Below, in pieces: positions 21,001 to 27,000 of a DNA stretch of 64,000 nucleotides; the stretch's first letter is position 1; the number at the start of each line of letters is the position of its first letter. Location of the stretch: assembly GCA_024227565.1 (NCBI GenBank), contig JAAEUE010000165.1, forward strand, positions 71,911-135,910, in the 5' to 3' direction. This DNA comes from Alphaproteobacteria bacterium. Its GTDB lineage: Bacteria; Pseudomonadota; Alphaproteobacteria; Rhizobiales; CAJQND01. The position numbers were made by a program.

Positions 21001-24000
21001 ATTTCCGCTGGCTGAGCGGGCAAACCATCTCCGCCGGCGGGGTTGACGACATCAGGGCCCTGCGGGTGTCCTACGTGGGTGAACTTGGCTGGGAACTGCA
21101 TTGCCCCATGGACGGGTTGCCGCAACTGTTCGATGCCTTGATGGAGGCCGGTGAGGAATTCGGCATCGGTTTGTTCGGCGCCTATGCCCTGAACTCCTTG
21201 CGCATGGAAAAAGCCTATCGCGGATGGGGCTCAGAGCTCACCACGGAAATCGACATGTTCGAGGCAGACATGGCGCGCTTCTGCCGGCTCGACAAGGGCA
21301 CCGCGTTCCGCGGCGAGGCAGGATCACAGGTGTTCAAGCAACGCGGGCCGCGCATTCAGCTGGTCTATTGCGAGGTGGACGCCGATGATGTGGATGCCGG
21401 TGGCAATGACCCGATCTTTGACGGAGACAAGCTGATTGGGCTGACCACGTCCGGTGGATATGGTCATGCGGTGGGCAAGAGCCTCGCGTTCGCCTATGTG
21501 GAACCGGGATACGTCAAACCTGGCTCAAGCTTTGAAATCGAGATTATGGGGGCCCGGCGGAAGGCAAGCGTCATAGCCCAACCTGCCTATGATCCAGGCA
21601 ACGAACGGCTGCGTGCATAGGGCAACAAGACGGCAACAGCCAACCCTGTTGCCCCCTCACCTCAATCGATGTAAGTTTTCTGTACTAGAACGTGCAGTTA
21701 TCCACATCGATGGGATGTGATCATGACCACATTGGGCGAACGCGTCCGCGTGCGACGCAAGGAAAAGGGTTGGACTCAAGGCCGGTTGGCACAGGAGGTC
21801 AGCCTGTTGGGTTACAATATCCCGCAGCAGAGCATCGCTACAATCGAGTCACGAGGCGCGGTGCGCCCGCAATGCCTGTGGGAGCTTTGCCGAGCCCTGG
21901 AAGTTGAAGAGCGCTGGCTCGTTCATGGTGAGGGTCCCAGACGGCGCAAGGCCGGCCCCGTCACTTACGAGCGCGATCTGCTGTTTGAGGTTGTGCACGG
22001 GGTCGAGGAAGCCTTGCTTCGTCAGGGCGCATCCCACAACACCTCGCCTTCGGTGCGGGCCGAGCTGATGGCCACCTTGTACGAATATTTCGCCCAGGGC
22101 GACGAAGCGAACGAGGACTTAAGCCGCGCGCAAGTCATAGATCTGCACACAAAATTGAAGAGGGTTTGACGCACATACTCAGACTGATAAGATTAAATAA
22201 GACCGAGGGAGACACTTATGACGCCGAGTGAACTGCAACTCAAGATCGATAAAATCATCGACCGAAGTTTTGAGCCAACTCGCGAACAAAAAATAACTTC
22301 TATTTTGACAATTGTCAGCAGCCTGGATTTCGATTCTGTACTGGCCCATGCACTGAAAGTGACATTTCACTGCGACGATATTAGAGGCCTTCAGGACGAA
22401 CAATTAGAACAGCTCTTCCAAATTGCACGAACCTGGCGTTATCAGGCTGACAACACTGGCCCCCAAGAGCAGCAAAGACCAGTGGTGGTGAATTTCCGCA
22501 GCAGCGACGCTTAGGTCTGATGGAAAGCCCGCAAATCTCACGCCTGCCCCTCTCTGGGATCGACTGTCCGGTGCAAGAAGCCGGCCTGAGCTGGTGGAAC
22601 GACCGGAGCGGCGTTGCAGAGCTCAACCATGACCCATATCTGGCCATTAGCCCTCATTTGCAGCTGGTTATCGATGAGGTCCGAGACGGTGCGCCCCGGT
22701 TTATTTATGTGGGAGAGCAAAGCTTTGCTGCAAAGCTGCTGGGTGAACGCTGCACTTCGGCATTTCATGCCGGTGAATGGTGGGACGATGGCGGTTATGC
22801 AGAAGCTGTCTCCGGCAGTTATGACGAAGTATCGAAATCCGGAGAACCCGTTTTGGAGGAGATCAAGGCGAGGGTACGTCTGCCTGAACGCCTCTATCCA
22901 ATTTCGGAAGCCACCATCCACTATGAAAGACTATGCCTGCGGACGTGCTTGGCGAACGGCATGAAAACCATCACGGTGATCACCAAGGCCGTGGGCAAAA
23001 CTATCTTGAAGAAATCGTTTTAGAACATGAGAGCCAGAGCTTACATCGCCCGCAAAAACCTCTGCCAGATGAGCTGTCCGATTCAAAGCGCGGCTCTTTC
23101 CTGGTGGAAAGCACGATCCGGAGTGGCGGAGCTGGACCAGCCGGAATACCTGGATCTGGTGCCTCACTTCCAGATTGCGATTGATGACAACCTCGCTGGC
23201 CCGCCAAACTTCTTTTATGTGGGAGAACAGTCTCTGACCGCCAAACTTCTGGGACACAACTTCACGCCCGCCATGCACGCCGGGGAGTGGTGGGATGATG
23301 GCGGTTATGCGATGGCGATCTCGGATGTGTTTCCCGATGTTTCCACAACGGGCGAACCCACGCTTGAAGAAATCAAGGCACCGATCCTACCACCGTCACA
23401 CTGGCCCTCGCGCGCTCCAATCGTGTTGCATTACGACCGGCTGAGCTTGCCATCAATGCTGGATGACGGCCAGAAGACGTTCACCATCGTCACAACCCGG
23501 AAAAGTATGCTTCAGGTGGTGAACTGACCAGTTCGACAAGATCCTGCCAATCACTCCACACCATGTGATCTGACGGATCCCAGGGCGGATGGGGTGTCCC
23601 CCAATTGACCGCCTCCTCGCTCTTGTGTTTGTAGCCTCCTCGGGCGGGAAAACCGGCCGTGGAGATTTTTTCCGTGGTCAGAGCGTAAAGATAATCGGGC
23701 TTCCAGCGCATAAACGCTATGCCCAATGCAAACCGGAGCAAGGCGGAGTTCAGCCGCTTGCGGGCCTCGCCGCGATCGATCCAAAACTCGCCGTGAAATA
23801 CCACCCGCCCATTTATGTTCTCCGCAACAGGATGTTGTTCCTGAGCCATTGGGCAATCGTAAATCCGCCGGAAGTGAACACGCCACCAATCACCCAAGGT
23901 GATCCACTCTAGGTCATCGCAGCGCATGGCCTGGACATGCACCAAATCACCAGCATCGTTGTGTCCCGATATCCATAACCCCCGATGCGCGGGGGTATCG

Positions 24001-27000
24001 ACCAGCGCAGGATCAAAGAACGAATTCAGGGCCGTCTTGCCCGTCGTTTCCCGGCAGGCTGCGCTGAGACAATCAAAGTCGTCAGAACACTGAATGTGGA
24101 TGCCTTTGGCTTCAAAAAAACGATGATGCGCAGAAATAAACCGCGCGGCATCCACTTCAAGAGAGGGTGTGTTCTGGCGGACACTTGTGGTCCGCGAATG
24201 TTTCAACCTAACCCCCTTTCCCCCCGGGGCACCTGTGAGCCTTATGTGAGATCACTTGATTTGCCAAGTCGGGAACGGCTCCCAGATGCAACCAAAAATC
24301 GAGTTGACAGTGTTGTTTGTGGGTTTTAACCTCAAACGATGTAAATTTAGATGGCTACGGGGGTGCTATCAGTGTCGGGTGCCGTGATTTCTCGGTCAAA
24401 TGGGGCAACGGAGAACAAGCAATACAGGATGCATCCTTATTCCTGGACCCTAGAAAGCAGCTGGTCAAAACAGCTTGGCTTTAAGCGGCTGAAAATGTTC
24501 GCGAAATTCCGTGACGGCGTGCTGAACAAATGTTCGCCCCCCCTGCCCACTCTCTCAACTGTCATAAGAATGGCCGGCGGCCTCCTTGCCGAGGCATTCC
24601 AACCGGCCAGGCGGGCGAGAGTCGGTCCCCCCCGAGCTCTCGCCCGTTCCGGGCCTGCGGCCAACAAACATAAAATAACCGTTCTGAACTCTAGAATAGC
24701 CGGTCATCAAGCATTCTCGCAAGTGCAACCGTTCGCCCGGAGATGACCGGATAGGCCGGAGGGACAACGACCAATCATAGCAATAAGGTCGTTTGTCTCT
24801 CCGGTTTCTTTTAATCCAGGGCGAAAGGCTAGATTTTAGCCAACCAGTTCGTTAGCAGAGAAGAAGAACTCAATTTCCGTTGCTGCCGTTTCCGGCGCGT
24901 CAGAACCATGCACGGAGTTGGCTTCGATATTTTCTGCGAAATCCTTGCGGATGGTGCCGTCGGCGGCTTCGGCCGGGTTGGTGGCGCCCATCACTTCGCG
25001 GTTCTTGTTGATCGCATCTTCACCTTCAAGCACTTGAACCACGACGGGCCCAGAGGTCATGAATGCGACCAAATCGTTATAGAACGGGCGCTCTGCGTGA
25101 ACGGCGTAGAAGCCTTCTGCCTGTTCTTTGCTCATGTGGATGCGCTTGGACGCGACGACGCGCAGGCCTGCGCTTTCGAGGCGGTCGATGATTTTGCCGG
25201 TGATGTTGCGGCGGGTTGCGTCGGGCTTGATGATAGAGAATGTGCGTTGCACAGCCATTTTAGGTACCTGTCTTTTTTTGGAGATGAAGCTTGGGATTTC
25301 GCCGCGTTATAGCGGGCCTGCCTCGTGCCATCAAGCCGGAAGACCGCCACCTTTAGAGGCAATTCGTCCTATGAGGCCCTGCCAGAATGTGCTTAGTCTT
25401 AGATCTCGGGACCGAGAATGAGTAAGGCTGACAGGGGCGCCGCTGCTCGCCATGGGATTGAAACGCTTGTTTGCACTGGTTGTGGTGCTGATGGTCGCTG
25501 GCCTCGGTGGCCTTTGGGCCTATGAGACAGGGCGTACATATCAGATAGCCGTAGGCGCGGGACCGCGCTCTGGCCAAGCCTTTAAGCTCATGACTGCATT
25601 GCAAGAGGTGATTCGGCGGCACAATCCGGAAATAACGCTTGAAGTGTATGAGACACGTGGGTCGTTGGAGAACTCTCTGCTGATGGCGCGCGGTGCCGTT
25701 CAGTTCGCCACAACGCAGGCAGACTTGGCCAGTACGCCTGCGGCGCGCATGGTTGCTGAGCTCTACCCCGACACCTTCCAACTCATTGTCAGGCCAGACA
25801 GCAAGATCAACAACATTGGTGATCTTGCAGGCAAACGCCTGGCTTTGCCGCCCGAAAAGAGCGGAGAGTTCAAATCGTTTTGGTTTCTCGCCTCCCACTA
25901 TGGCCTGAAGCGCCAGGATGTAGAAATCGTGACAGGGACGGAAAAGACCACCGATTGGGTTTTTCTAAATGGCGATGTTGACGCTCTGTTTCGCATTAGA
26001 GCTCCTGGCGACGAGGCTTTGCTTGATCTGATCGATAAGGTGGATGGACGTATCCTGCCCATCCGGCAGGCTTCTGCCTTGCAACTGCGCCAACCTGCGC
26101 TGCGGGCTGGCACCCTGCCCGTAGGCTCCTATCGGGGCCAGCCGCCGGTGCCGGCGAGCGATTTGCCGACGGTGGCCGTTAAACTGCTTCTTGCGGTAAG
26201 GGCCGAAGTTCCTGACAGCGTGGTGCGCGCCATAACTTCGCTGTTGTTTGAGCGGCGCAGAGAACTGATCTCCTTTGAGCCCCTGGCCGGATCCATCACC
26301 GAGCCAAAGCGTGCCGACGGCACCTTCCTGCCCATCCACCCGGGCGCGCAGAGCTTTTATGACCGGGATCAACCATCGTTTCTTCAGGAAAACGCCGAAC
26401 CGATCGCCCTAATCGTCTCCGTCATCGTTGTGCTGGCCTCCCTTCTTCTGCAGCTTGCAAGCTATCGCAGAAAAAAGGCGATGGACCGCTTCAACATTGA
26501 ACTTCTGCTGCTCTCAGACAAGGCCCGCCATGCGGACAGTCTTGAGACCATCGACCGCTGCGATGCCGAGCTTTCAGATTTCGTCCCGCGCATCGTTGCA
26601 GCAACACAGAGCGGTCAAATCAGTGCAGAGCAGTTCGACATGTTCCATTTCACCTACGATACCGTGGAAGATGCGATCAGGGATCGGGAAACGCAATTGT
26701 TGCGGACCAAACCGACGCCGGCGACCAAACAGCCCCGCCGCACAAACCAGCGCCGGGCAGCAAAGGGCAAGGCCGTCTGATGCGTAAATTCCTGGCTCCC
26801 CTCCTCATTCTCGCCGTTGCCGCTGTTGCTGGCCTTGTTACTCAGCATCAGGTGCGAACCTATCAGAATGAAGAAGTTGAGAAGCGTGCGTTTACACGCC
26901 TTCAGCTCTTCTTGGGTTTGCGCAAGACCGCCCTGGAAGATCATTTTCGCTCAAGCGGGTCAGATGTGCGTGCCATGAGCCGCAACACCATGGTGCAGCT

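Follow-up and report, generated by a model that had tools for sequence, protein, structure and literature searches.

Between the housekeeping genes dmgdh and ndk of a marine Hyphomicrobiales bacterium there is a 3.2-kb islet, which lies in the 64,000-nucleotide stretch of contig JAAEUE010000165.1 analyzed in this study (hereafter, the window). The closest relatives of the source metagenome-assembled genome (MAG) are also Hyphomicrobiales MAGs. The islet begins with the gene of an XRE/CI-type repressor (XRE), which is followed by the gene of a small acidic protein (p98) and by two tandem genes of PAS-like proteins (parA and parB); a fifth gene, p238, converges on parB. These five open reading frames (ORFs) had already been described in a sequence-only reading of the window, and the description proved correct, including the two paralogues of about 166 aa, which are 52% identical. 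That reading had regarded the flank of about 630 nt between p238 and ndk as non-coding. This flank holds a further frame, ORF6, at 24372-24746 (+).

A 20-base sequence, ACCTCAATCGATGTAAGTTT, located at 21659-21678, recurs as ACCTCAAACGATGTAAATTT at 24329-24348. Both copies are on the + strand and 2670 bp apart, and 18 of the 20 bases match, just as had been claimed. The features of the islet are listed in Table 1.

Table 1. Positions in the window of the genes, promoter-like elements, operator-like copies and hairpins of the islet
Feature	Position	Strand	Remarks
Hairpin GGCAACAG...CTGTTGCC	21632-21653	+	just past dmgdh stop; no T-run on + strand; flagged as terminator-like on - strand
Putative XRE-operon promoter	21649-21677	+	TTGCCC (21649-54)-17-TAAGTT (21672-77); GTTGC and TA..TT hexamer conserved in six lineages
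Left operator-like copy, TCACCTCAATCGATGTAAGTTT	21657-21678	+	covers spacer and -10 of the putative XRE promoter
Conserved box in XRE leader, TTATCCACATCGATG	21698-21712	+	invariant TT.TCCAC.TC; contains inverted copy of the ATCGATGT core
XRE	21723-22169	+	148 aa; N-terminal helix-turn-helix (HTH) and helical C-terminal domain of about 75 aa; no S24 peptidase
Possible internal promoter	22166-22193	+	TTGACG-16-TAAGAT with extended TG; before p98, overlaps XRE stop; conserved only in part
p98	22218-22514	+	small, acidic; isoelectric point (pI) 5.0; GC 47%
parA	22520-23023	+	stand-alone PAS-like protein, 167 aa; AlphaFold2 (AF2) model with predicted local distance difference test (pLDDT) 80 and predicted template-modeling score (pTM) 0.80
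parB	23027-23527	+	second PAS-like paralogue, 166 aa
p238	23490-24206	-	238 aa; convergent with parB, overlaps its 3' end by 38 nt
Leader/Shine-Dalgarno (SD) of p238	24212-24230	-	G-rich; follows the putative p238 promoter
Putative p238 promoter	24240-24268	-	TTGGCA (24268-63)-17-TAAGGC (24245-40); GATTTGCCAAG and CCCCCTTTCCCCCCGGG conserved in six lineages
Putative outward promoter, P_right	24304-24332	+	TTGACA (24304-09)-17-TAACCT (24327-32); GTTGACA and TTAAC invariant in all lineages
Right operator-like copy, TAACCTCAAACGATGTAAATTT	24327-24348	+	covers -10 to about +9 of P_right
ORF6	24359-24746	+	124 aa, pI 11.8; SD GGGGG 24359-63, GTG start 24372, stop ends 24746
Hairpin H1	24571-24609	+	inside ORF6
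Hairpin H2	24610-24648	+	inside ORF6
Hairpin H3	24700-24750	+	inside and just after ORF6
Hairpin H4	24753-24807	+	just after ORF6; followed by TTTCTTTT

Accessory status of the islet

On every contig with homologues, the gene context is shared: dmgdh is followed by XRE and by genes of about 97, about 168 and about 166 aa, and then, in the opposite direction, by the 238-aa gene and ndk. Homologues are few. A set of 5.8 billion proteins contained only 14 for the PAS-like paralogue, only 4 for p238 and only one for ORF6, which gene callers had thus predicted once elsewhere.

The dmgdh protein was used to scan 185,579 species genomes, and a sister clade was found whose dmgdh is 83-84% identical, compared with 90-92% inside the clade that carries the islet. 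In one sister lineage (L020), the gap between dmgdh and ndk is 75 nt (L020 9425-9499) and contains one hairpin terminator; that is, the site is empty. In another (L015, 9428-11898), the same junction is occupied by a different 2.5-kb insert, with genes for a SLOG/TIR-like protein of 371 aa and an outer-membrane protein of 243 aa. Because the first site is empty and the second insert is different, the islet is accessory and the junction is variable. The dmgdh|ndk junction appears to be a variable site for accessory genes, which may be conflict-related. The DNA that the window has in excess of the empty site starts at the dmgdh stop and ends at the ndk stop (21621-24835). The earlier proposal of an inserted, self-contained cassette is supported by the empty site and by the fact that the module is also found elsewhere, phages included, as described below.

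All five proteins are under purifying selection (pN/pS, the nonsynonymous to synonymous ratio, 0.15-0.41) and evolve 2-8 times faster than dmgdh and ndk. Synonymous sites between lineages are saturated (pS 0.62-0.83). The block had been described as more AT-rich than its neighbors. This is true of p98, whose GC content at third codon positions (GC3) is 0.50; the GC contents of parA, parB and p238 (55-56%) and of XRE (60%) differ only modestly from that of the window (57.5%). GC3 is near host values in all cassette genes but p98. Because of this closeness and because the clade is deep, the acquisition must be old.

No integrase or transposase was found in the cassette, in agreement with the sequence-only reading, nor in the flanks of the window or of any relative. 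Likewise, there are no phage genes around the islet, which is flanked by housekeeping genes here as in all relatives. There is no divergent cro-like ORF beside XRE; the dmgdh stop lies 102 nt upstream of the XRE start. The hairpin just past this stop is likely the 3' end structure of dmgdh.

The 20-base repeat and its candidate reader

In order to judge the repeat, we calculated how often such a match arises by chance. Between the two flanks (102 and 629 nt), the expected number of ungapped 18/20 matches is 1.6e-4, and 0 of 400 shuffles reached 18. In the whole 64-kb window, about 6.5 direct 18/20 pairs are expected, and the caution that had been attached to the repeat on this account was fair. 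A match by chance without function would fit this latter number. However, the expectation for these particular flanks is low and both copies are conserved in all relatives, and we regard the chance explanation as negligible. A degenerate core, ACYTCAAWNNATGTA, occurs at two places only in 64 kb, which are the two copies, against 0.13 expected.

The core T[CA]AC[CT]TCAA-NNN-ATGTA is found in the dmgdh-XRE spacer in 6 lineages and in the p238-ndk spacer in 9, and has no further occurrence in these loci. The register of both copies is conserved across lineages, and the remainder of both spacers is unalignable apart from a few blocks. Because the core has been kept at both sites though synonymous sites are saturated, where neutral DNA should be randomized, the repeat is a selected cis-element and not a scar.

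The sequence-only reading had also considered an att-like scar, with the repeats bracketing the inserted block. An att-like or target-site-duplication scar of the integration would agree with a direct repeat about 2.7 kb apart around an accessory block, and with the existence of an empty site. In contrast, the extra DNA extends 38 nt beyond the left copy and 487 nt beyond the right one, and neither copy is at an empty-site junction, so that they do not bracket the inserted block. The check proposed in that reading was for an empty site with a single repeat copy; the empty site found here has at best a 10/15 resemblance. Unlike known att sites and target-site duplications, the repeats lie off the junctions and have no cognate recombinase, in the flanks of any relative included, and a neutral scar could not persist where synonymous sites are saturated. 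We therefore think that a scar is very improbable.

Each copy overlaps a promoter-like element (Table 1). Across lineages, the consensus is TTGCCC-N17-TA(A/G)GTT on the left and GTTGACA-N17-TAAC(C/T)T on the right, and P_right faces away from the five genes of the cassette. The copies stand in different registers relative to the two -35 hexamers, which fits a protein-binding site better than a shared promoter element. With the conservation in register and the promoter-like setting of each copy, the reading as a reiterated operator gains support; XRE would be the protein that binds it.

XRE matched the Pfam models HTH_31 and HTH_3 (E 4e-5 and 2e-4, under the gathering cut-offs) and repressor families of PHROGs (E 1e-7). 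Its best NCBIfam match was the DicA subfamily (E 2.6e-5, far under the cut-off). The stretch IPQQSIATIE.RG of the HTH is invariant in six lineages, and we counted this match of an invariant HTH stretch with an invariant operator core for the repressor-operator model. The C-terminal domain of XRE aligns with the repressors of two related modules, L095 and L092, which are described below. PADLOC 2.0 gave weak HTH matches for XRE only, and no toxin-antitoxin (TA) family was matched in NCBIfam save a sub-threshold HipB-like HTH.

In the XRE leader there is a perfect DnaA-box consensus, TTATCCACA, at 21698-21706, of which TT.TCCAC is conserved in six lineages. Some 64 kb of DNA should contain about 0.5 such boxes by chance, so that only its conservation is notable. 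The possible internal promoter before p98 could uncouple the cargo from autoregulation by XRE.

The repeat might be a true cis-regulatory site that is read by a factor other than XRE, such as a host global regulator, p98 or ORF6, or it might be a specialized promoter element. Conservation proves selection but does not tell which factor binds; the motif is no clear palindrome, and the DnaA-box consensus 20 nt from the left copy suggests that host factors may act here. However, the window and each related locus contain the motif at these two places only, unlike the site of a regulon; it goes along with the cassette, and the empty site lacks it. The different registers speak against a shared promoter element, and a homologous prophage module has both a repressor and bracketing operators. 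All in all, a reading of the site by something other than XRE seems unlikely.

The 8-bp inverted repeat that had been noted at the left copy, ATCGATGT / ACATCGAT at 21665-72 / 21704-11, is present. The 20-mer could thus act through RNA or DNA structure, by a leader hairpin ATCGATGT:ACATCGAT upstream of the ribosome-binding site of XRE and a related 5' leader of ORF6. In the alignment, 92% of the cells are paired, with one compensatory C:G->A:U change (L007), and the right copy spans the predicted +1 to +9 and would be partly transcribed. However, the covariation is not significant, as 73 of 500 shuffles equaled it, and 2-3 of the 8 pairs are broken in L006 and L010. Given the assigned promoter, the left copy would stay outside the transcript, and the right site has no partner arm. 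An action through structure is quite improbable in our view, and we return to the repeat as an operator of XRE below.

The cargo genes, ORF6 and their relatives

When the AF2 model of parA was compared with the PDB by Foldseek, the top matches were PAS/LOV domains (best E 1.5e-3; probability 0.9-0.99 for the top-ranked matches; template-modeling score 0.4-0.6). Matches in BFVD include stand-alone PAS proteins of phages. No curated PAS sequence model of Pfam or NCBIfam matched at E<=0.1. The model indicates that parA is a protein of PAS fold, a fold defined by an antiparallel sheet of five strands with flanking helices, and the earlier description of small ligand-binding-like proteins holds at the level of the fold. 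The most conserved PAS-like motif of the clade, AGEWWDDGGY (residues 84-93 of parA/parB), coincides with a loop that is the one part of the AF2 model with low confidence (pLDDT below 50). It is absent from remote relatives and may be a clade-specific interaction or ligand loop.

Profile searches with p238 gave at least 690 remote cluster representatives (50% identity clusters) of 220-260 aa and 290 metagenome matches. The acyl-CoA-binding motif A of GNAT acyltransferases is R/Q-x-x-G-x-G/A after strand 4, and the family consensus YHGExW...RGxGL of p238 resembles it. Four of 60 p238 relatives showed a weak match to the Pfam GNAT model Acetyltransf_1 (best E 1.3e-3), and p238 of the window itself passed no Pfam GNAT model. 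In the window clade, ARKRL, SPRYL or ARKLL stands where the family consensus has RGxGL. The AF2 model of p238 is poor (pLDDT 42), and its Foldseek matches, mostly GNATs, are non-significant (E>=0.2). Profile searches against PDB sequences gave no match. Thus the possible acyltransferase fold that had been suggested persists as a weak hint from the family, without a match of the window protein, and the fold of p238 may be a divergent, GNAT-like one. Neither in the PAS-like protein nor in p238 could residues for cofactor binding be assigned.

Relatives of p98 were detected by iterated hidden Markov model searches at the same position in five such modules (L091, L105, L095/96, L094). PADLOC 2.0 gave no defense match for p98, parA/B, p238, ORF6 or their phage relatives, and the PAS-like/p238 pair fell into no Pfam, NCBIfam, PADLOC or PHROGs family above threshold.

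We also surveyed viral contigs. An exact 23-mer from the 100%-conserved core had no match in them. A protein scan with a narrow p238 alignment gave no confirmed match, and one with a 13-sequence alignment gave matches. Remote relatives of p238 occur in several phage and prophage settings: a prophage-like region of Kiloniella majae (L091), a metagenomic prophage (L092), Labrenzia phage vB_LagS-V1 (PP058680.1) and two IMG/VR contigs. In the phage cases, the p238-like gene converges on and overlaps the PAS-like gene, and upstream of the latter lie the genes of a small protein and of a CI-type repressor. In vB_LagS-V1, the repressor of the module is the annotated CI, beside Cro. BLASTP showed that p238 and the PAS-like proteins are homologous to those of the phage and prophage modules (E 1e-19 to 4e-49, and 8e-18 for parB against the prophage protein L092_176). 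The order of repressor, small protein, PAS-like gene and convergent p238-like gene is found in L091 of K. majae and also in a stand-alone module between housekeeping genes (L095). For the small protein, homology to p98 was detected in L091; in vB_LagS-V1 and L092 no such homology was detected, though the layout is alike. Our search of the literature found nothing relevant on phage vB_LagS-V1 or comparable modules.

In prophage L092, a 17-nt palindrome, TTGCGATTATCGCAAAT, occurs five times, in two clusters that lie 2672 bp apart (6226-6274 and 8930-9010) and bracket the module. Three copies abut the repressor gene and a TTGACA promoter, and two are on the far side, before the leftward early genes.

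Of 93 loci with a p238-family gene, 81 also have a PAS-like gene within 1.5 kb, and among the 12 that do not, 10 are truncated. The genes of the pair are convergent in 42 cases, always with overlapping 3' ends, and co-directional in 39, where they are about 200 nt apart. Among 32 convergent loci, at least 18 have an upstream HTH gene, and 0 of the co-directional ones do. The co-directional loci belong to another alphaproteobacterial group. TauE, acyl-CoA dehydrogenase and RecO lie to one side of the pair; to the other lie pckA, rapZ-like genes and a chvI/chvG-like two-component system. The PAS-like/p238 pair is therefore a widespread unit, which is carried in phage lysogeny modules and chromosomal islets and is not restricted to phages. 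We had also considered a prophage remnant as the general origin of the module. This is unsupported for most copies, since 18 convergent-class loci have housekeeping genes as flanks, and integrase was not among the top families.

The frame of ORF6 is open from promoter to stop in 9 of 9 lineages, despite length differences of 120 nt and a compensated 1-nt indel in L001, and the other two frames have stops in nearly every lineage. A conserved GGGGG lies 8 nt before the start, and the start codon is at +69 from the -35 in 8 of 9 lineages (L001: CTG). L011 has GCG at this position and would begin at an upstream TTG. The products are basic and 83-126 aa long across lineages, with the conserved C-terminus ...GHQAFSQVQPFARR*. 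Because the frame is open in all nine lineages, the SD is conserved and the start position is fixed in eight, comparison of the lineages indicates that ORF6 is a real sixth gene.

The nucleotide sequence of ORF6 is also constrained. All 9 lineages are 100% identical in H3, and around 24700-24750 they share 48 identical nucleotides without a synonymous change, although synonymous sites of the neighboring genes are saturated. RNAalifold predicted 65 pairs, in which single-sided changes (GC<->GU, GU<->AU) keep the pairing on the + strand only; one pair of H4 has compensatory changes in 4 sequences. Because the pairing is kept on the + strand only and the 48-nt stretch lacks synonymous change, there is nucleotide-level constraint beyond coding. 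The sister lineages without the cassette, L015 and L020, lack the hairpin blocks, which therefore are part of the islet and not of ndk. Over 21000-25500, neither Rfam at E<=1 nor ARAGORN (tRNA/tmRNA) gave a match. The possibility that the conserved blocks are a novel small RNA alone was dropped, as the frame proved to be uninterrupted in all 9 lineages and the SD and start to be conserved; the hairpins are an added constraint.

The leader/SD of p238 has an invariant G-rich tract, GGGGGGAAAGGGGG, and the loop of H2 (24625-24632) has an invariant UCCCCCCC. As a speculation, the C7 loop of H2 could pair in trans with this leader.

Lineage L006 (4281-4770) is a natural deletion variant, which is without parB, p238 and the p238 promoter and has kept the right operator copy, P_right and ORF6. 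Its ORF6 lacks hairpins H1 and H2. This single case hints at a functional link of these hairpins to the deleted genes.

Likeness to phage immunity regions

The immunity region of phage lambda has the order OR/PRM-cI-rexA-rexB-OL/PL, with operators at both ends (OR ... OL). In the islet as well, a CI-type HTH repressor gene heads an operon with accessory genes, and the same operator-like sequence is found at both ends on promoter-like elements. The far operator overlaps a promoter codirectional with the repressor operon, and ORF6, which is small, basic and fast-evolving, is in the position of N. As with lambdoid immunity modules, a homologous module is found in temperate phages. Unlike lambda, the islet has no divergent cro-like gene and lytic promoter (the PR side) and no S24 (RecA-cleavable) domain, and one operator copy is visible at each end instead of three. 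The cargo is PAS-like/p238 and not RexAB, and the islet is fixed between dmgdh and ndk without a prophage setting of integrase, replication and structural genes.

Compared with vB_LagS-V1, L092 and L091, the islet has homologous p238 and PAS-like genes in the same order with overlapping 3' ends. Both L092 and the islet bracket the module with repeats, which in the islet are of a different sequence and show one visible copy per end. These modules, unlike the islet, are embedded in mobile elements that also carry a cro-like gene, an integrase and genes for replication; only one PAS-like gene is present, the operator sequences are different and an ORF6 homologue is lacking.

In the Qin prophage of E. 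coli (dicA-dicC / dicF-dicB), the repressor of a defective prophage silences a neighboring promoter with a small unusual product. The islet is similar in that a stranded XRE/CI-type repressor, with DicA as its far sub-cut-off best NCBIfam match, would silence the promoter of ORF6. There is no sequence relation beyond the HTH, Qin is a recognizable prophage, and in place of DicF/DicB the product in the islet is a basic protein with embedded RNA structure. The pair also differs from type II TA systems, being convergent here and about 200 nt apart when co-directional, with no recognizable TA family.

From these comparisons, we consider it fairly probable that this is a six-gene, laterally acquired and long-resident islet with the layout of a phage immunity region, in which the 20-mer is an operator of XRE at both ends. 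According to this model, XRE would head an operon with p98 and the two PAS-like genes, and this operon converges on and overlaps p238. By binding the left copy, in the spacer and -10 of its own promoter, XRE would regulate itself. By binding the right copy, at the -10/+1 of P_right, it would keep off ORF6 with its small, very basic product and structured mRNA. Our best guess for the cargo is a ligand-sensing PAS-like protein with an acyltransferase-like partner. XRE as the binder, repression by its binding and the action of the cargo are the steps that we infer.

Several observations weigh against this model. A simple sigma-70 scanner called neither the XRE promoter nor P_right, because both -10 hexamers are weak, and both assignments rest on conservation. 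The motif is not an obvious palindrome, unlike many operators of HTH dimers. An automated search for operator pairs in 16 HTH-bearing modules did not rise above shuffles, although it also missed the known operators of L092, owing to the definition of the regions. In metagenomes, most copies of the convergent class are flanked by housekeeping genes. The co-directional pair is found in syntenic core chromosome (L156, L173, L174 and similar; about 5400-6660) with no detected upstream HTH, and the cargo therefore need not be conflict-related. As there are no cro-like, integrase or phage genes near the islet and most convergent copies are flanked by housekeeping genes, the immunity-region layout may have been borrowed by phages and may not be the origin of the islet.

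We also put forward, as a distinctly tentative idea, that the trio of p98, PAS-like protein and p238 may be a new sensor-effector system, which temperate phages and host bacteria might express from the repressor operon, for example as a ligand-gated acyltransferase for superinfection exclusion or for a lysis-lysogeny signal. ORF6 would then be, in this clade, an output gated by the repressor, its mRNA doubling as a structured regulatory RNA.

The regulatory logic proposed here, a CI-type repressor with operators at both module ends, is ordinary and a variant of a known design. The parts worth following are the cargo pair and ORF6 with its dual constraint. ORF6 illustrates that a spacer of 630 nt can hide a real gene, and the nucleotide constraint on its mRNA is stronger than that on any neighboring coding sequence. 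The cargo pair is among the tightest uncharacterized gene pairs that we measured. Since it is present in the lysogeny module of the culturable vB_LagS-V1/Roseibium aggregatum RF14 and in a cultured Kiloniella strain, its function is directly testable.

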